From Trichodelitschia bisporula (Eukaryota): 64,000 bases of DNA. Under the pieces are notes generated by a model. The model saw only the letters and a list, made by a program, of their open reading frames with translations. It made no database searches and was not told the origin of the DNA. This document shows, piece after piece, positions 8,271-21,165 of the stretch (its first letter is position 1; each line of letters opens with the position of its first letter). The DNA is taken from positions 2,364 to 66,363 of the forward strand of contig ML996696.1 in NCBI GenBank assembly GCA_010356995.1. Direction: 5' to 3'. The position numbers and the translations under genes are program-made.

Positions 8271-9523
8271 GCCTGAAGGGGGAATTCTGGTCGTGATGCG
8301 TACGACGTGGAATGCGGAGGTGGAGCTGCTGTGCGCATTGTGGTTGTCTCGTGCCTCCTGCAGGCCCAATTGCGCGGCCGCGCGGGCGCAAAGTTGGCAG
8401 CGCGCAACGTATTGCGTTGCGAGTGGCTATGGACGAAAGTCAATATCGTGGTGCATGTCATCGACGGGAGGTTGTTCGTCGCACACGGCGCGCCTGGATC
8501 CGCACGGTTCAGCTTCTTGTTTGCGGGGGCGCTGGGCGCGCGGGTTGGGGATGGGTGATTGGTTGGGGCGGGGGTTGTCACCGCCTGTTGGATGCAGATG
8601 GGATGGATACGATGCACGCTCTGGGTTCAGGTTCTGACGCCTGGCTTCCGATCGATGGGGGTTGAGGATTCACTGTTCACGATGACGTTGGCGGAGTCGT
8701 GCTCTGGCGCCAGCATTGCGCATTTCTTGTTTTGTAATGCGCGCGGCGAGGAATACTCGAAGCGGACATGGCACAGTAATCACTCCGCCGGAGCCCAATG
8801 CTTGATTCAACGTCGCGACCCCGGGCCAGCCCCGGAGCAGCCTCTGTTACGGCGGTCCGGAGCGTGGGGGAACGCGTGGGGGAAGCCGATTCGAACGGAG
8901 TTTGCATCTCGGATATCACGTGTGCGGGGCCAGATCGGGTGGGGATAGGCGGGGTTAGCGAGGCTGTTCCGCGCTTAGGCAGCGGGGCGTCGGGGATTGG
9001 AGCGGAGAGGTGGGTTGCTCCGCTCACTGGTAGGTCGCTCCGACGCACTGTAGAGAAGACCGGGGTTTGCTTTGCGCTTTGTCCGATGGAGGTGGGATGG
9101 AGATGAGGTCGGGGTTACGAGAGTGCAGAAACGACGTCTGCGGCTGCTCGGGGTGGGGGAGTATATAATATGTGAGGTGCGGCGGTTGGCTGGAGAATCA
9201 ACGGACAAGTGCAACATTTCCTTTTCGACTCTTCCAGATTCTTGCTTCTTGTGGTCTGAGTTTGACTCCGGAAAGAGACTGGAAAGCCTTGCCAACGGTC
9301 CACCTTACTACATATTATCCGCTTATCCGCCACTCGACTGAGCACGCGAGCATTTAACCTTTGGAGACCCACTGCCTTCAGCCTCGATCTTGCCTTGTCT
9401 AGTTGCATCAGCTTGATCTCCGCCATCAAAAGAACTTCCCTCCGCCTCTCTTCAAAGAAACTTTCCAAGAAACCTTCTTCCAACTTCACCCGCACGCGAC
9501 ACCACCCCCCTCCCACCACCACA

Positions 9524-9784
9524 ATGACATCCACGCAACAACCCCGCGTCTTCATCCCCAACCTAGTCGGGCGACAAATGCTTTCCTTCCCCCTCGACCC
9601 TCCCTCCCCCACCATCACCTCGCTCACCTCGCTCACCAAGCTCACCGAATCCGAAAGCGCAACCTCCTCCCCCGCCATGTCCCGCCGCACCTCAGCCGCC
9701 AGCACCGCCTCCTCCGCCTCCAGCATCAGCACCAGCAGCGACACGCGGCGCAAGTACGATTTCATCCCCGACGATGCGTTCTAG
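9524..9784 (+). CDS. Small Ser/Thr-rich hypothetical protein (86 aa)
   Basis: ATG in good context (ACAATG), C-ending codon bias like neighbouring genes, MSRRTSAAS-type phosphomotif; no family recognised. Confidence 0.45.
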   Translation: MTSTQQPRVFIPNLVGRQMLSFPLDPPSPTITSLTSLTKLTESESATSSPAMSRRTSAASTASSASSISTSSDTRRKYDFIPDDAF

Positions 9785-11601: not shown

Positions 11602-12511
11602 ATGGCAAACACACGATTTGCTGTCGGCCTGCAACGTACGTATCCCACAGCGCCGCGACAGCGACAGCTCAACTGACATTCTCAGGGTTAATACCATGGC
11701 TCGGTTACCACCACGTGCTCATGGTCTTCATCGCCGTCGCAATTATCCTCCTCTGTAAGTTTTCCGGCCTCGCTTCACTCCTGCACAGAAACTAACATTC
11801 CCAGCCCTCCTCCTCGCCGGATGCTCCTCCACCTCCCCCCTCATCCCCGGGATCTTCCTCATCTCAATGTACTACACGCACTACACAGCGACCTACGACC
11901 CATCACAAGTAGACCCAGGCGTCAACTCTGCCATCAGCAACATAGTCGGACACGCGCAACTCGAAGTCCGAGTCGGATACTTCGGCATCTGCGTAACACA
12001 AGATGGGTCCGGCTACCTGTGCAGCAACAACGCGACGGCGCTGGCACAAAACGTCAACATCGACCAAGATCCGCTGAACCTGATCTGGGTGGCGCAGACC
12101 TTCAAGGAAGCAGTCGTGTTCCCGTACCTGCTCATCGTGGCCATCATCCTCGCGTTCGTCTGCTTCATCCTGCTCGCCACGTTTCCGGGCTGGCACTATG
12201 AGCGCGACGACATCACCGGGTCGGACATCGACGTTAAGCCCTTCCCCAGCCGACCAGTCTGTCAAGTTGCCTTAGCACTCATTTTCATCGCCAGCGTCTT
12301 CGTCCTCGTCTCCGTTCTCTGGCAACACACAGCCTCCGTCGCCGCCTCAACAGTCGCGCAAGACTTCGGCAACGGCAGCGTGAAGAGCGGCGTCGGAACC
12401 TCGGCAATGGTGCTTGGCTGGTTCGGATTCGTGCTGCTCATCATCGTGACGATCGGTCTGCTGGTCATGCTGCTCAGCATGAGCGTGCTGGACAAGCTTA
12501 CTGGCGACTAA
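11602..12511 (+). CDS. FIG1: Fig1-family Ca2+ influx/membrane-fusion protein (SUR7/PalI/claudin-like), spliced
   Basis: Exon 1 MANTRFAVGLQ, two GT-AG introns (~11636-11685, ~11755-11804), LLLAGCSS, signature VRVGYFGIC...C, DPLNLIWVA..FK and four TM helices. Confidence 0.9.
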
Positions 12512-13177
12512 GGCGCCACGCCACTCAACGAAACTGAGTTTGCATTTCTTCGGCCTGGGTGTTTAATGCAATGCGTGCGATGGGCTGATAGCGGTGTTCA
12601 TTCCGACTCTGCTGCAAGAGGAGGACGGGCTTGTGTGCTCTTTTTATTGCATGGCGGGCGTATGGGCTGGGTGGACCTGGGACTGACATTAATTTGCTTT
12701 TGCGTGCTGCACGCGTTGCACGCGTTGGGGGACTGAAGAGACTGAAGGCACAGAAGGGACTGTTGTACAAGCAGTGGACGAGAGACGAGATGTGACATTG
12801 TACGCGACTGTTTATATGCACCACGGCTGACGACAAGCTATGTGAATTTGGGGGGCGGGACGGAAAACGTAGATAGATTCGACCAAATGTCATCAAGTGC
12901 TGTCATCAATGAAGCACACCATTCTTACAGCATCGCATTTTCAAGTGAGGGTTGTTGCGAGTTCATGAAATGGGCAAGCTTTCGGACAACAGCAATGAGA
13001 ATTTCACATGGCAACGAGGCAGCAGCATCCAGTCACAGGCACAGCAAGTAAACGTCAGACCACTAATACATTGGCCACAACTCTCTGAACGATCTAGAAG
13101 CACCATGGTCCATTGATGCCCGTAAGTGTGCACCCATAGACACAGCGCGGCGACGCAAGAGGTCGGCACGTTCAACC

Positions 13178-15669
13178 TTAGATTTCGGGCAGGTTGGACA
13201 CACATATGTTGTTCTTAATACAGACCTTTGACTTTGGAGTGCAACCCTTCATGGTGACCGGCTTGCACTCAAACCCCTCAGAGCACCACCCCTCCTCGCC
13301 GCAGGCCACACTGTGCGGAGGTTGGCGCGGTTGGCGCGGCTGAATCGACGCATCCTTCGACGTGGGCGGAGGGTCATTGGGGTCCGCAAGGCAGAAGCCC
13401 TTGGTAAACTTACAAAAAACAGGATTCTTGCAAGCTGGCGGGTGGATCAAGGTGCAGCGGTAGTGCGCGGGGCATTTGTCGACGTCGTCAAACGGGTTGC
13501 AAGACATCGGGGACGGATCGGCACGCTTGGACAACTCATCGGCTTCGCTGTCACGAACATCGCTCATTTCCTCTGCGCCAGATGACAAGACGGTGTCGTC
13601 AAAGCAGAAGCCTTGGGCCCCACAAACTTTCGAGTCCGGATCCGAGCACCCCTCTGGGAGGATGACGGTGCAGTGCTTGCCGTTGGGACATCGATGTTTC
13701 TTGTCGCATTTGGCGGGAAATACAACCGTCCGCTTCATCAAGTTTTCGGCCTCCCACCCTTGCACCTCAGCGACGTTCGGGAAAGCAGGTGGCGGGGGCG
13801 TAGGCGAACCGGGCGGCGGAGGACTGTCGATGTCTATCATACGGTGGCCTTGGCCTCTGCCGCACCGATCAATATCCGGATCCGGATTCAGGCATCCTGA
13901 AGGGAAGAAGAGGTCTAAGACGTAGTAGTCGGGGCATTGAAGGAATTGGTTAAGGGGGCGGCAATCGGAAATCCATCCGTCAGAAGGGTTCAGGTCCCTG
14001 GACGCCAGGGCGCGGTGAAAATCTGCGACATCTGGAGGAGACACGTCAGTATCAATTACCACCAGACATAAGCACTATAAACATTGAATGTAGACTCACT
14101 GTAGCCAACAGGACCCATAGCGGCCTCGTGGACGTCCCCTGTCGGAGGCCAAATTCGACTCGGATTTGTGTGAGTTGGACGCGGCTTAGGGCGATGGTGC
14201 AGAGGACCTTCATCAGAACGCTTTTCTCCCACAACAGGAATATCTTCGCTCTCAGAATGCTGGTTCGGGGGCACCGTCGGCCAGAACTGAGTGACGGTTA
14301 CCGCAGCGACAGTGACAGTCACAACGGCCTGCGGAACATGAGTCGTCGAGCGGAGCGGAGGCTGTAGATTGATGTCGAAGTCGTTTACAGCTCGCCGATT
14401 CGGAGGAGGGAGAACAGCAGGGGTCGTACCATGGATCGGCGAACGAGTCGTGACGCTGAACGGAGGCTGCGGCTTCTGCTTCGTTACCGGCTGGGTGTGA
14501 GGATTCGGCTTGGTGTAGGGATTCTCGTCGAAGTCTTCAACGGCCCGCCGACGGGGGGGATGCGAAGGCGCGGGCTTTCCCTTCGCAGGTGTAAGCGGCG
14601 GCTTCTTGGGGGGGTCCAAAGCGGAAGACTTTCCCTTCGCGGGCGCATGATGCGTTGTGGTATACCGAGGATGGCGCCAAGGCTCCGCGGCCGGTTCAAC
14701 AACGCCAATGTCGACGGAGCGGCGAGTCGGAGGATGATTCGGCTTGGGATGATGCGACCTTGGATGATGAGGGCGACGGTGCGGATGCACATTATCCGCA
14801 TCATCGTCCACGTCGACAGAGCGGCGAATTGGGGGATGCGGTTCCCAGGGCACTCCCTTCGCCGCTGTATGCTGCAGCTTGGGAGGATGCGGCTCAGGAT
14901 GGTGAGGACGGCGGCGCATATCCTCTTCGTCCGCACCATCGTCCACGTCGACAGAACGGCGAGCTAGAGGGTGATGCGGCTTGGGATGGTGCGGCTTGGG
15001 AAGATTGGGGCGGCGGTGCCGGTCCTCCTCGTCCGCACCATCGTCCACGTCGACAGAGCGGCGAATCGGAGGCAAGGTCGAATTCGAGCTACCATAAACA
15101 GTGCGGCCTGTCTCGATGCAGGCACCCTCCTGGCACATACATCCAGCGATGGGAAGATACCCACAGAGCCACGTCTTGTTCACACAATGCGACGGGGTCA
15201 AAGGAGGGAACTCGGCAGCCTTGTTGGCGCAGATGGGAACAGGGCCGCAGCACGTGTGAATGTTGACCTGACCACAATCTGCATCCGAAGCGCACTTGAA
15301 CTTGGCGTCGACGTTCCGGTTGATTGGGCTCGCCTTGTGGGGAGGAGGCTGAGCCTTGGCGGGCTTCCCGATCGGAGGTGGACCGTCGGGAAACTCGGGC
15401 ATGTCAAAGCGAGGAGAGCAGACGCCGAACTCATCTTCGCAATGGCCGAGTGCCCAGTACCCACAGCCACGGTTCTCGGCGTCGCCGGGCCTACACTCGT
15501 ACCCCTCGGGGCACAAGCCAGTCTTCACCAAACAGTACGTGGCATCGAGGGGAAGCTGGGGAGGGTCGACGGAAGTGACGTTTCCAGCAGCAAGAGGCTT
15601 GCCGACTGCCGGCACAGCGCCAGTCGCTGCGAAGAAGGCAGCGAACGCTGTCAGTAAAGACAGCTTCAT
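13178..15669 (-). CDS. Secreted Cys-rich / His-Pro-rich repeat polyprotein with dibasic (Kex2-type) sites, ~807 aa, 2 exons
   Basis: Signal peptide MKLSLLTAFAAFFAATGA. Intron 14032-14099 (GTGAGT...CTGAC...CAG) joins ORFs 14056-15684 and 13178-14062 in frame (GY-N-VADFHR). Repeated 6-Cys modules and RRSVDVDD repeats. Confidence 0.85.
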
Positions 15670-15760
15670 GGTGACTGGTAACACAGTCTCAACAAAGGGA
15701 GTGGAACTAAAGATTGTGTTGGGTGGGGGGAAGATGAGGGGGTTGAGGGAACGGAGGGTG

Positions 15761-15908
15761 GAGGATGTAGAGGGTTGGAGAGAGGAGGATGTAGAGGGTT
15801 GGAGAGAGGAGGATGTAGAGGGTTGGAGAGAGGAGGATGTAGAGGGTTGGAGAGAGGAGGATGTAGAGGGTTGGAGAGAGGAGGATGTAGAGGGTTGGAG
15901 AGAGGAGG
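15761..15908. repeat. 24-bp minisatellite (gaggatgtagagggttggagagag) x~6
   Basis: Perfect tandem copies, visible as (EDVEGWRE)n in the ORF track; lies ~90 bp upstream of the polyprotein ATG. Confidence 0.95.
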
Positions 15909-17221
15909 AGGTGGAGAGAAAGAAGAAGAGGAGTACTGAAGGCGGCCATTAAATACTCGCCACCTCTTACCTGCTGGCCCGCGCCTTCCGTTGCTGGATA
16001 GTTCCTGCTCAGTGCGGTGCCAGTGACGACACCGCAACTGCTGGAGGAAGGCGCGACATGGCATCGAGAGGAAAGCACTGTCCACCCCTTCCCCTTCCAC
16101 CAGCGTTACCACAACTGTGCCCGTTCGTGCTTGCTCATTTGACTGGTGCAAGCAATGGACAGTCGGCCGCGCCTGCCATGGAGCTCAGTAGGGTCCGCGA
16201 CGAGGCAGCGACGAGGCAGCATCAACGTTGCGTCTCGAGGCATCCCTGAGATTGTCAGATGTGATATCATGACTGAAGGACCCATCTGACTAACCTCTGT
16301 TGAGCACTGCCTGTCGCCGCCTTACGATACTTACGTTAACGTCTCCCTAAAGAAGGACATCTTCCACTTCGTAATATTCATGCCAGTGGAGGTGAGAGCT
16401 GTGACAGCTTCGAGATAATGTAAGAGCAGACAAAGTTCACACCAACGCGCCGTCCTGTAGCCCCGCCCCATAGCCCTTCCAGGTATCTTCAGCACTCCGC
16501 TCTGCCTCAAAGATGGCGGTACGAGCGGGCGACATAATGACAGGAACGTGCCGTCAGACGAAAAGTCGGGGAGCAAATGCTTCAACCACAACTTTGCTAA
16601 TCTCCATGACTAGTGACAGACGTTCCGGATGCCCATCTTCATCATCTCACGCCAGTCACCTATCGTCCGTGAAGCCAGAAGTGCGATGGCGATGCGATCA
16701 AATTGATGTTGTTTCGCGAGTGAGCTCAGTTGTCGTCGGACTTCACTCCAGTTTGTGGCGCGGCCCAGCCGGCCGATCGCCGCAGATCTGGCTCCGGAAT
16801 CGCGTCACGCGCGTCTCCAACAACATCTGTGGTAAACTACAAAATGCGGTCAGCACGGCTTCTTTTTAAACACATCTTTCAATCATCACTTACTAGAGTG
16901 CACTTCGGACTTCCAGTATTCTTATGCTCGTCACGCTCGTATCCCTCCCTGAACCTGTTTCCTCGCCCACAGCCTCCCCTTCCAATGACAGCCCGAGACG
17001 GAACCTGCCTGGCCGCCGGACGCTCAAGTGTTCGGGACTTCGAGTGCATTGTGTCCCACATGCCTGGTTGCGAGACTCTCTGGACATGCACAAAGGTTGT
17101 ATCAATCAATCAATCACCACAAAGATCGTTCAGTCGATATCGCACAAGCCCAAATTGATTCAACCAAGCTACGCCCAGTACAATGCTCTCAAACAGCCCA
17201 TCATGCCATTTTATATACAGC

Positions 17222-19149
17222 CTAATCCGTCCACACCGCATTCGCACAACACCCGCGCCCAAACTTAATCGGCTTGCTCGGGTTAAACGTGTCGTCCCGA
17301 TCCCGATTCTTGTCCGCCTCCGTCCGCGGCGCCGCCGGATCTCCCGTCCCGACCACAAACCGCGGCGCCCGCCACTCCGACACGATCGCGGCGCGTACAT
17401 TGAACACCGCCGGCAGCTGCCGCTTCTCCTTCGACCCCTCCACCACCTCAGGCGCGTACTCGAGCGTGCTCACCACCCCAAAGTCGTGCACCACCGGCGC
17501 CGCCGCCTTCTCCGCCCACGTCCCGCGCCACGCCCCTCCGCTCGGCGGTGCTGCCGCCGGTTTCCATGCCGGCTGATCCGGCTCGGGCTGCACCATCGAC
17601 CAGCCCTGTCCGGGAACGGTAATCGTCGTTGTCGGCCTCGGCGCGTTCACCGGCCTTGGCACGTTCACCGGCGGAGGCGCATTCACCGGCGCAGGCGGCG
17701 CAGGCGGCGCAGGCGGTGCCTGCGGTGGCGGCCGCACGACACTCGGCTCTGTGTCCTTGGGCAGGTTGAGCAGGCCCTCAATGCGCCACACCTGCACCAT
17801 GCCCGCTTCGCTGTCCGACAGGGCCATGTACTCGTTCGACCAGTACGCGGGCATCACGGCGTTGGATTTGCCGCCGGAGGTGGATGTGCTGACCTGCATG
17901 ATCTTGGCGAGCGGGTAGCCTGCACCTTTGGGTTGGGCGTTTGCGGACCGACCAGGGACTGTGGGGACTGCGGCGGGGGCGCCGGGGTCGTTGTCCGGGT
18001 TGGAAATGAGGATTGCGGTTAGGAAGCCGGGCGGGAGTTTTACGGGTGCTGCGGCTGAGGCTGGTTTTGGTGCTGCGCCGCCTGTTGGTCGCCATCCGCC
18101 CCACTGGCGTGGGTTTAACTTTGCGAGAAGCTTGTTCACCGGGGGAGAAGCTGCGGGACGTCCGCCGCTGCCCCGAGAGGAGGTCGTCTCCTCCTCGTCA
18201 TCGTCGCCCTCGTCGCCCTCATCTCCCTCCTCTTCGTCTTCGTCGCGATCGCGGTCGGGACGGTAGCGCACCGAGGCCCAGAGGACGTTGCCGTCGGCGC
18301 TGAGGAGGATTTCGTGGCCGCGGTAGGAAGTGACGTTGACGTCTGTTGGGTTAGGTGAGTTCAATGTAGGTGAAGACTCCGAGCAGACTTACTTGGCGGG
18401 ATCAGGGTGTAATTCATGCCCGTGTAGCGCAGGCTTGGGCCCCGCGGTGTCGCCTTCACGCTGTACACGGCGACCATGTTCAGCTTCGACAGCAGGAGGT
18501 ACAAGTAGCGGCTCTTCGGATGCAGCACCACGCGTCTTGGCCTAGCATCTGCGATCGGAAACGGCGTCATGGCGCCCTGATCCAGCAGCCCCGTATTCGC
18601 ATTGATGCGGTGCGTCCACACGCCGTTGCCCTTTTGATCCGCCGTGTACAGGTACGCGTTCTCCGTGTCCATGGTCATGCCGTGCACGCGGCTATTCGTC
18701 GCATACGTGATGTTCTGGATTCCCCGCTCGAGGCTCCCGTCGTTTCGCGTGCTCATCACTAGCCCGCACGGTGACCTCCCGCTGCCATACACGTTGAACG
18801 GCGATTTCTGCTCCGCCACCACGCTCGTCGTCCCGTGTCGCTGCGCCTGCCCGTCGCACCGGCTGTTGATAGTCAGGTTGCTCTGGAACTTGAGCTCCTG
18901 CGGCGAAATGACGGTGTAACTGCTCCATCCGTCGCGCTCGGCGGCATACAGCGTGCCGCGATCGTAGCTGAAGCTGAGCCACGGGTGCCCCGCGTGGGCC
19001 GTGAAGTTCCCCACCTCAGCAATCGCATTGCGCTCCGTGTCATACTCCAGCGCCCAAATATGCGGCGTGCGAAAGCTCCCCACAAACATATGATGCAGAT
19101 CCGCCGCCGCAGGCGCCAGCAGTGCACCGGCAACAAGCCAGCGCATCAT
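17222..19149 (-). CDS. Secreted lactonase-family 7-bladed beta-propeller (carboxy-cis,cis-muconate cyclase-like) with low-complexity insertions, spliced
   Basis: Signal peptide MMRWLVAGALLAPAAA, then DLHHMFVGSF, VHGM, RPRRVVLHP..YLYL, STSGGKSNAV and terminal GCCANAVWTD as in fungal CMLE homologs. Intron ~18343-18393. Confidence 0.8.
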
Positions 19150-21165
19150 GAAAAATCCGTCCCTTCTCACAAAGAAAAACAAAAAAAGAGCGTAAGGAGC
19201 GAAAAAAACGTAACGAGCGGCGCAGCAGCGAAACGACGATGCCTTCGCCCCCGCTCGCCTGGGGCTCACGCGCATAATATCGCAGCCTTAACGCCGCCGG
19301 GCCTTGCCGGAATTACTCCATCGGCAGGCCGGGCTCACCATACAGCTGTGCACCAGAAATAGCGGATTGGTGACGCGCAAGCGCGTGATTGGGCTCGCTG
19401 GGGCAGCGAGTCTGCGTGTCGTGAGGGCCGGGGGCGAATTTGCAGAGCAATTAAGCCGGGCTCGTATATTTGACTTCATTACTCTGGCGGTGGAGGAGAG
19501 GGTGGCGGGAGGGGATAATTTGCCGGCGCGATGCGGGCGCGATGAGGCTGGGCGAGGCTGATCGCCCCGGGTGCGGCGGCGCGACGACGGGCGGGTGTCG
19601 CAACGTCCACGTTGGACGTGGATGTTGCGCCTGGAAAGCCTCCTGCCAAAAAATTCCTACCCTTCGAGCGCGATGATGAAGGCATATCCCCTCCCTCCCG
19701 AATCGTCGGCCACCGCAGCTCTTAACCCGAAACGGGCCCCGGAGGCGCCTGGCCCGGGCAGCCGGCGGCGGGGACCATCCCTCCCGCATAGAGCGGGATA
19801 ATATGCGCGGGCCTACGGTGGTGACCGTTTGCCGGCCATATAAATGGCGTACGTACGCCGTGGCTCCGCTGTCGTGCTGCCTCACTGGGAGGAGGGAGAG
19901 GGCGATATTGCTCGCCCGCCAGCTCAAGGGTGTGTTTGCGGGGATGGCGAGGTTGGGCATGGGAGCCTTTGACCAATTTCTTCTGCTTGCGAGGGTCGTG
20001 TTTCTGGCGGGTGATGATGCGATGATAAATCCCTGGATGACAGTCCAAAAGTCGCCAGCTCATTCCCGTCGGAGTGTACCCGTACTGCGTGGATCCGCGT
20101 GGCTAGGCGCCTCGCCTCCCCTTCCCCGGATGATGCCTCCAGCCCGATCCCGCGATGGAGGCCCACATGGTCTCCATCGTCAGGTACAACCACGAGCCGA
20201 GAACGCACCTTCATCTCAAGCCGTTCGTTCTCCACTACCCAGGAATATCTCTTGTGGCATAAACGTCACTCAGCTTACCGCCCGTGCCCGTCGGAGGTTA
20301 AGCATGCACGTGACCCAGCCTCGCGCCGGCGACCGGAATGGTGCTGACGAGAAAAGGCCGGGCCAAGACGGCCCCCATCGGGATGCAATGCCGAGGCGCG
20401 GGTGAAAAATCGAGATCGGGCTTGGGCTTGATGGGATACGGGATGGTTGCTATCGGGAAAGGCTTTGCGGTGACACATGCGAAGATGGATCGAGATTTAT
20501 GCGTCATCTGCCGATGGGAAGTGTGGGTGCGATAGTGCATGTTGCCTAATTTGGGTACATACGACGGAGGGTAACAAATTTGGCATAAAAGCTTGATTCC
20601 GTGGAGAGGGCGATGAAGCTTGGAAAATCTGATAATTGAAGCATAGGCTTGACACATGCAATGGCTACAACGTGTAAGTGAGGTTCATAAAAGACGAAAG
20701 AAGTACAGAGTCAAGAGTTGCTTGAGACCAAATATACGATGCGGCAAGTCTTCGGATGTTCCTAGCCTCCGTTGTGCACACTCTACATCATGTGCGCCTT
20801 GCGCTGGCATGTCCCTTTCCAAAACTGATATTCCCCTTCCAACATCAGTATGATGGTGGCATGCATGCTTTAATGCCCTGTTCTCTCATGTTTCGCACAT
20901 CAACCGGGTGGTGGCGCGCATTGCGAAGGTGGGATGGTGATATCAAGGCCTGCTCGCTGCTCATTTTACTTTCAGAGCGTTGACTTCACAATCACGTCAC
21001 TCAACCATCGAGACGTCAAGAATGTTGGGAAGAACCCATCGCAAGCGCGTACAGCGAATCCACCGAAGGCAAGACATCCACAGGCAAGATACCCACAGAG
21101 GTGTACCAACCACAACGCCAACACCCTACTCCCACAGCACAGTAACCTAAACACCTAATCAAACA

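Follow-up and report, generated by a model that had tools for sequence, protein, structure and literature searches.

A candidate secreted precursor that combines diverged dibasic-bounded repeats with new types of cysteine-rich modules in Trichodelitschia bisporula

Among described fungal proteins, the closest counterparts of the gene analysed here come from Ustilago maydis. Hum3 is an 828-amino-acid (aa) protein in which 17 repeats, each of 31-36 aa, precede a hydrophobin domain, with putative Kex2 motifs separating 14 of the repeats; Rep1 is a 652-aa protein from which Kex2 releases peptides of 35-53 aa (PMC4617103). KEX2-processed repeat proteins (KEPs) have also been sought with in-silico rules (Le Marquer et al. 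2019, PMC6339444; a further KEP source is Umemura 2020, PMC7329392), which ask for at least four fragments on cutting at KR or RR, at least three fragments that share a motif, and repeats that make up at least 15% of the length (PMC6339444). In this study, we analysed a gene in a stretch of 64,000 nucleotides from Trichodelitschia bisporula (assembly GCA_010356995.1, contig ML996696.1, positions 2,364 to 66,363 of the forward strand; hereafter the window, with position 1 as its first letter). This gene, with all of its features given below, is on the minus strand and encodes an 807-aa protein with a signal-like N-terminus, six cysteine (Cys)-rich modules, and an array of six diverged units bounded by dibasic sites. 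We put at about even the chance that it is a lineage-restricted secreted precursor from which kexin would release linear peptides, both acidic and His/Pro-rich, and several Cys-rich pieces. Its architecture is a variant of the known repeat-containing, Kex2-type secreted precursors with Cys-rich domains, and its module types are new.

The gene consists of two coding exons. Exon 1 (14100..15669) specifies aa 1-523 and the first base of codon 524, and exon 2 (13178..14031) specifies aa 524-807 and ends with the stop codon at 13178-13180; joined, they amount to 2424 nt, or 807 codons and a stop. The start ATG (15669-15667) is the first in-frame ATG past an upstream stop and stands in a CACCATG context. 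Between the exons lies a 68-nt intron (14032..14099, GTGAGT...CTGAC...AG), whose removal had been predicted in an initial annotation, made from the sequence alone, to yield an open reading frame (ORF) of about 807 aa. This prediction was borne out by transcript contigs assembled from two coded public runs that belong to one sample and one study, in which sampled words of the locus are present at 0.90-0.91. The contig from run X1 (2639 nt) covers 13083-14031 and 14100-15789, and that from run X2 (2597 nt) covers 13125-14031 and 14100-15789. In both, the junction leaves out exactly 14032-14099, the ends of which read CT..AC on the plus strand and hence GT..AG on the minus strand. Because the genome has the intron and the runs only the joined form, and because a contig from Fig1, the gene next to it, stops at 12930 and then passes into a run of A, we read both runs as cDNA. 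On this reading, with the intron skipped exactly, the gene is transcribed and spliced as predicted. The contigs, which are no reliable measure of expression level, place the minimum extent of the mRNA at 13083..15789, with a 5' untranslated region of at least 120 nt and a 3' untranslated region of at least 95 nt. We consider it very probable that this is a real gene that encodes a secretory protein; from the signal-like N-terminus and the even-numbered Cys frameworks we infer that its product would enter the secretory pathway.

Directly upstream of the gene is a 24-bp tandem repeat (15753-15916, 6.8 copies with 97% matches), and in both runs the transcript contigs of the gene come to an end within it, at 15789. 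From about 15880, other contigs run in the opposite direction, and this repeat-filled interval may be shared by two transcription units. Transcript contigs of 3089 and 3033 nt match 15880-16247 and then depart from the window, with loose ends at 16172 and 16247, which suggests a spliced transcript of a gene that has no Pfam-recognisable ORF there. At the opposite end, a homologue of the mating and membrane-fusion protein Fig1 (11759-12930, plus strand) converges with its 3' end on that of the gene (at or before 13083), the two being about 150 bp apart.

The encoded protein begins with a signal-peptide-like segment (aa 1-18, 15616..15669) that is made up of MK, a 13-residue hydrophobic core, and the small residues TGA before VP. 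Its 19-residue hydropathy of 1.75 is the maximum of the whole protein, a heuristic result that agrees with the signal peptide proposed in the initial annotation. All 38 Cys residues of the protein are found in even-numbered groups. Six-Cys modules are present at aa 46-84 (M1, 15418..15534, Cys spacings 6,5,9,7,6), aa 632-666 (M3, 13604..13708, spacings 5,5,7,7,5, with an acidic tail behind it), aa 701-737 (M4, 13391..13501, spacings 8,5,7,5,6), and aa 767-800 (M5, 13202..13303, spacings 5,5,7,6,5). The module at aa 547-580 (M2, 13862..13963) is degenerate and has four Cys residues (spacings 8,13,9), with Cys3 replaced by Leu and Cys6 by His. The modules have the common pattern C-x5-8-C-P-x-G-[YFK]-x-C...P-x-G-C-x-[DN]-P...C and are 23-37% identical to M1, with the Cys positions kept. 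A Pro-rich linker connects M1 to a 10-Cys module (aa 126-184, 15118..15294, spacings 5,7,0,5,14,6,7,1,4), the pattern of which is unrelated to that of the 6-Cys modules; its separate status, as proposed in the initial annotation, was confirmed. Pro makes up 15.6% of all residues, and PPPP-type linkers are located between modules.

The homology of the modules was assessed by scoring each of them with a hidden Markov model (HMM) built from the others and comparing the score with those of 1000 shuffles in which the Cys residues were fixed. The scores of M3 (24.8 bits), M4 (16.6 bits), and M2 (10.9 bits) were reached by none of the 1000 shuffles and that of M1 (10.5 bits) by four, and M5 scored 4.1 bits, a value reached by 181 of the 1000 shuffles. 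As judged from these comparisons, the homology of M1-M4 goes beyond the Cys framework, and M5, given the number of shuffles that match its score, shares the framework only. The five homologous modules that had been proposed thus stand as four 6-Cys modules and one degenerate 4-Cys copy, with the qualification that the similarity of M5 is limited to the positions of its Cys residues. As the Cys positions are kept at 23-37% identity and the scores beat those of Cys-fixed shuffles, the frameworks appear to be under selection. Furthermore, M2 lacks Cys3 and Cys6 together, which suggests that these two residues pair as a disulfide.

Knottins, or inhibitor cystine knots, have disulfides 1-4, 2-5, and 3-6, with the 3-6 bond threading a ring, and their loops follow the consensus C-x3-7-C-x3-6-C-x0-5-C-x1-4-C-x4-13-C. 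The description of the modules as knottin-like finds no support in their loop lengths, and a role as toxins or inhibitors would be conjecture. In M1, M3, M4, and M5, loop 3 has 7-9 and loop 4 has 5-7 residues, which places both outside this consensus. The loss of exactly Cys3 and Cys6 in M2 may be taken as an indirect hint at a 3-6 pair, which it would fit, but it would also fit other folds. AlphaFold2 models from single sequences had a mean predicted local distance difference test score (pLDDT) of 38.7 for aa 40-192 and 52.2 for aa 624-807; in the latter, the modules reached about 53-67 (M3 about 55-67) and the spacers remained below 50. Both models are poor because the protein has no relatives to draw on. 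Fold searches were run with the aa 624-807 model, the other being left out for its low confidence. Foldseek against the PDB returned 24 rows, all at E≥2.7 and hence none at E≤0.001. With VIA-align, 3 of 48,161 chains scored Z≥2 against the same low-confidence model, and with a maximum of 2.3 they are far below significance. These were Ms11a-2 (Z 2.3, root mean square deviation (rmsd) 2.5, 35 residues aligned), Hc3a (Z 2.3, rmsd 3.2, 38 aligned), and purotoxin-2 (Z 2.0, rmsd 5.4, 53 aligned), all of them small disulfide-rich animal toxins that aligned to M4.

Six diverged tandem units of 34-65 aa each occupy aa 198-484 (14218..15078), a region that ends at the KR dipeptide 483-484. Each unit opens with P-x-R-R-[S/A]-V, which is the sole invariant block in the alignment of the six. 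In units 1-3, a second RR divides the unit into an acidic 16-mer with a net charge of -3 to -4 and a His/Pro-rich 18-29-mer with a net charge of +2 to +4 and 4-5 His residues. These three units are also visible in the DNA as a 139-nt repeat in three copies of 60-78% identity. Unit 6 contains a strand-prone segment rich in Val, Thr, and Ala (aa 448-463, 14281..14328), whose hydropathy of 1.48 is under the level of the signal peptide.

Dibasic sites are more frequent in the protein than its composition predicts. We counted 14 [KR]R dipeptides where 5.3 +/- 2.1 were expected, a number that was reached in 1 of 2000 composition shuffles, and none of them falls inside the Cys frameworks, which take up 238 of the 807 residues. 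There are three KR sites. The first, GEKR/S, closes the repeat region at 483-484; the second, LMKR/T at 623-624 (13730..13735), has Leu at P4 and lies 7 residues ahead of M3; and the third, LSKR/A at 692-693 (13523..13528), also has Leu at P4 and is situated in a spacer with pLDDT<50. In all of these, the cut would come after the R. The sites listed in the initial annotation, MKR/TVV, SKR/ADP, EKR/SDE, and RR/SVD, were all recovered in spacers. Leu occupies P4 at three sites, namely one RR site and two of the three KR sites, and Pro does so at six; both residues are listed as accepted by Kex2 at this position (PMC8528282). No dibasic site is found between M1 and the 10-Cys module, nor between M4 and M5.

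In the mechanism that we propose, a Golgi kexin, i.e., a Kex2-type protease, would cut the six conserved P-x-R-R-[S/A]-V sites after the second R, as well as the KR sites LMKR/T, LSKR/A, and GEKR/S, and the products would act extracellularly, either at the surface of the hyphae or against organisms that compete with the fungus in dung. The presence of the PxRR[S/A]V block at six unit boundaries, together with Leu at P4, would fit such processing. What the products might do, be it surface coating, metal binding, or antagonism of dung competitors, is a matter of speculation. Cutting in silico at every site gives 13 pieces. They comprise an N-terminal piece of 186 aa, which carries M1 as well as the 10-Cys module, nine linear peptides that measure 16-58 aa, and C-terminal pieces of 140 aa (M2), 69 aa (M3 with its acidic tail), and 114 aa (M4-M5). 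The linear peptides, of which the proposed mechanism would yield six to nine, are of several kinds: acidic SVDVDD-type 16-mers, cationic His/Pro-rich 18-29-mers, and longer Pro-rich peptides, one of which has the Val/Thr strand-prone core. The notion of a set of released mini-proteins was overstated, as M3 is the only module that full cutting would free singly, the pairs M1/10-Cys and M4/M5 having no dibasic site in between.

The protein agrees with four of the five in-silico KEP rules (PMC6339444). It has a signal peptide, as judged heuristically; it has no transmembrane segment, the hydropathy outside the signal being at most 1.48; and its 13 fragments include three SVDVDD-type fragments of 16 aa and three His/Pro-rich fragments of the PHHP/PNLP type, with similarity judged from alignment. 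The fifth rule concerns repeat content, and here the protein falls short of 15%, with 5.9% (3x16/807), or 12.6% if three 18-aa fragments are included.

This shortfall in repeat content is one of several points that weigh against a kexin-cut precursor. The excess of RR arises mostly from the duplicated units, so that the sites do not count as independent events. At three RR sites, the next residue is Pro, which is unfavourable for kexin at P1'. A STE13-type X-Ala/X-Pro signature follows none of the dibasic sites, and a STE13-trimmed pheromone-like precursor was rejected on that account. No orthologues were found that would show the dibasic sites to be conserved across species. On the side of the gene itself, the RNA evidence comes from one sample in one study, and the run type is 'RNA?' by guess. 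In addition, the G+C content at third codon positions (GC3) is 0.64 vs 0.65-0.78 in the neighbouring genes, lower than in five of the six compared. The correlation of relative synonymous codon usage with these six neighbours is highest in the true frame (0.70), but it barely exceeds that of frame +1 (0.62), the remaining frames giving -0.02 and 0.23-0.39. Overall, the codon statistics are compatible with a real gene of weak bias.

A bolder form of the precursor proposal would have the protein deliver a cocktail in which His/Pro-rich cationic peptides, each with an acidic pro-piece, are combined with disulfide-rich mini-proteins of two previously unseen folds, and which arose by internal duplication in one lineage as a new family of competition or defence peptides. 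We regard this version as rather improbable.

Alternatively, the protein may be secreted and remain uncut, as a modular protein of the extracellular or wall matrix in which Cys-rich binding domains are held apart by rigid Pro-rich linkers and PxRR[S/A]V serves as a binding or structural motif. We consider this possible but doubtful. It would account for the high Pro content and the PPPP-type linkers between modules, for the two module pairs that have no dibasic site in between, for the Val/Thr strand-prone segment, which resembles those of surface proteins, and for the repeat content below the 15% of the KEP rule. However, no wall anchor was seen, as the C-terminus has no hydrophobic tail and the protein has no Ser/Thr-rich mucin tract. 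Furthermore, no known binding module was recognised in Pfam: at E≤10, there was no match to CBM1, CBM14, CBM18, LysM, TIL, WAP, EGF, or LDLa, and no known structural or carbohydrate-binding repeat that stays tethered was matched, a possibility that the initial annotation had itself raised. Finally, dibasic sites that are exposed in disordered spacers and have Leu or Pro at P4 would be expected to come into contact with kexin in the Golgi (PMC8528282). Two membrane-bound arrangements were rejected. A transmembrane protein is not indicated, as the VT-rich segment has a hydropathy of only 1.48 (aa 448-466, the best 19-residue stretch beyond the signal), and a glycosylphosphatidylinositol-anchored protein is not indicated by a C-terminus that has no hydrophobic tail.

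The apparent restriction of the gene to one lineage, which is part of the precursor proposal, depends on the sequence searches. With exon 2, phmmer gave no matches at E≤0.001 against 1.84 billion representatives. A word-indexed search, in which only proteins of 287-916 aa were scored, gave none at E≤0.001 among 8000 candidates for exon 1 and none at E≤1 among 62 candidates for residues 40-192. At E≤10, Pfam returned nothing for exon 1 and one chance row, VIR_N (E 3.6), for exon 2. There was no usable match in the ESM Atlas, and none of 60 pattern matches in metagenome contigs was confirmed by tblastn. The module HMM revealed no extra copy among the six-frame ORFs of the window, its best non-self match having an E of 0.38. 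Searching PDB sequences with the 10-Cys module gave chance rows only (E ~0.5), among them rows of ATP phosphoribosyltransferase. Two further candidates from PDB searches were also judged to be chance. One is a match of the module alignment to Ecp6 (E 0.031), which extends over 17 residues (83-99) of a Cys-containing stretch. The other is a CCCH zinc finger (CPSF4-type rows, E 0.5-1.5), suggested by C-x8-C-x5-C-x4-H from the start of M4, within a secreted module of disulfide type. Hence neither Pfam, PDB sequences, the ESM Atlas, nor the fold searches assign the protein to a family, in line with the initial annotation, which had not recognised the architecture as a named one. In the literature that could be searched, which did not extend to the KEP tables in the supplements of PMC6339444 and PMC7329392, we found no fungal precursor that chains several different Cys-rich modules with KEP-type repeats.

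The ORF adjacent to the gene (11867-12508, plus strand) is 100% identical to the NCBI entry 'membrane fusion mating protein FIG1 [Trichodelitschia bisporula]', with the next best matches in Verruconis gallopava (87%) and in Aulographum hederae and others (~82%). The identical match indicates that annotated T. bisporula proteins are included in the searched collection. As neither exon retrieves any protein, itself included, the 807-aa protein is apparently missing from the public protein set of this species. Within the reach of the searches, the gene would thus be confined to its lineage. However, the nearest sequenced relatives are distant, and a secreted protein that evolves fast could readily pass for an orphan at such distances.

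These results also bear on a second alternative, that we are dealing with a proto-gene, a transcribed ORF that is young or in decay and codes for a product of no selected function. Such an origin would be in keeping with the lack of a homologue in any search, with the absence from the protein set of the same genome, with a codon bias weaker than that of most neighbours, and with the GC-rich character of the region, in which long ORFs are open on the opposite strand too. We nevertheless think it unlikely. The 2.4-kb ORF is intact across a correctly spliced intron and has a good start context, after which comes a signal-like sequence. Even-numbered frameworks take in all 38 Cys residues and are kept in modules at 23-37% identity, and M2 has lost Cys3 and Cys6 together, as would be expected of a disulfide pair under selection.

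Least probable by far is a precursor of a peptide synthesized on ribosomes and modified after translation (RiPP) of the dikaritin/ustiloxin type. Its RR-bounded repeats would be cores tailored by neighbouring enzymes, an idea favoured by the RR boundaries themselves and by the di-histidine motifs that occur in some KEP types encoded beside DUF3328 genes (PMC7329392). However, a scan of the 62 ORFs with a length of 90 aa or more in ~8.0-21.5 kb of the window, by which short exons could be missed, revealed no DUF3328, tyrosinase, methyltransferase, or P450 domain; this lack of tailoring-enzyme domains in nearby ORFs makes a RiPP cluster unlikely. Moreover, the neighbours are housekeeping genes (COG3, RCC1-like, Fig1, lactonase-like, Mto1/centrosomin-like, Clp1/Grc3-like, and RPA34), and the units, at 34-65 aa, are poorly conserved beyond the cleavage block.

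Several other features of these surroundings were noted. At 17222-19287 on the minus strand, a lactonase-like ORF (7-bladed propeller) is found next to an ORF with a long Pro/Ala-rich stretch that contains acidic runs and has no Pfam match; the two may belong to a single gene that has an unusual extension of low complexity. Two more regions, 9115-9780 (minus strand) and 19451-20405, contain ORFs of 200-240 aa that have no Pfam match and lie amid housekeeping genes, and these may be further lineage-specific or unannotated genes.

It is noteworthy that a transcribed gene for an 807-aa secreted protein can escape public fungal annotation, which means that secretome surveys that start from protein catalogues would miss it. 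If the proposed processing is real, the gene would provide an ascomycete precursor that unites KEP-type linear peptides with several unrelated Cys-rich modules, and Kex2-processed fungal precursors would no longer be limited to those of pheromones, repellents, and RiPP cores. Small disulfide scaffolds of a new kind, along with His/Pro-rich peptides, would also become available from a competitive niche, dung.

The release of several peptides from one secretory precursor by dibasic cuts is also seen in host-defence precursors, such as in the apidaecins of the honeybee, in plant multi-knottin and cyclotide precursors, and in the killer preprotoxins of yeast and Ustilago. In apidaecin precursors, acidic spacers alternate with cationic Pro/His-rich peptides, and in the plant knottin precursors and killer toxins the released units are disulfide-rich. 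The likeness of the T. bisporula protein to these precursors would be one of logic only, an analogy that implies no relation in sequence or fold. A resemblance is also seen with Kex2-processed pro-domain (K2PP) effectors such as SnTox3 and ToxA, in which small secreted disulfide domains follow a disordered stretch that ends in KR and has Leu at P4, as do LMKR before M3 and LSKR before M4 (PMC8528282). However, each of those effectors consists of a single pro-domain and a single mature domain (PMC8528282), whereas the T. bisporula precursor would chain several such units, and T. bisporula is no known plant pathogen. With the KEPs, the protein shares HH motifs, which are known in some KEP types (PMC7329392). 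In contrast to them, it consists mostly of Cys-rich modules and unique spacers, and it has neither a STE13 signature nor a DUF3328 neighbour.

The known parallels are Hum3 and Rep1. They are of similar size (828 and 652 vs 807 aa), have a signal peptide, and contain imperfect tandem units of ~30-55 aa bounded by dibasic Kex2 motifs, and Hum3, like the T. bisporula protein, joins a repeat array and a Cys-rich domain within one precursor (PMC4617103). The peptides of Rep1 form amyloid-like fibrils, according to the same account (PMC4617103), and unit 6 of the T. bisporula array has a Val/Thr strand-prone core. Despite these similarities, the T. bisporula protein has no sequence similarity to either of them and no hydrophobin domain (Pfam, E≤10), and it comes from an ascomycete dung saprobe rather than from a basidiomycete plant pathogen. 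It has only six units, all strongly diverged, with a second RR that divides each of units 1-3 into an acidic and a His/Pro-rich half, and, unlike the Ustilago proteins, it carries six Cys-rich modules of two new types that flank both sides of the array.

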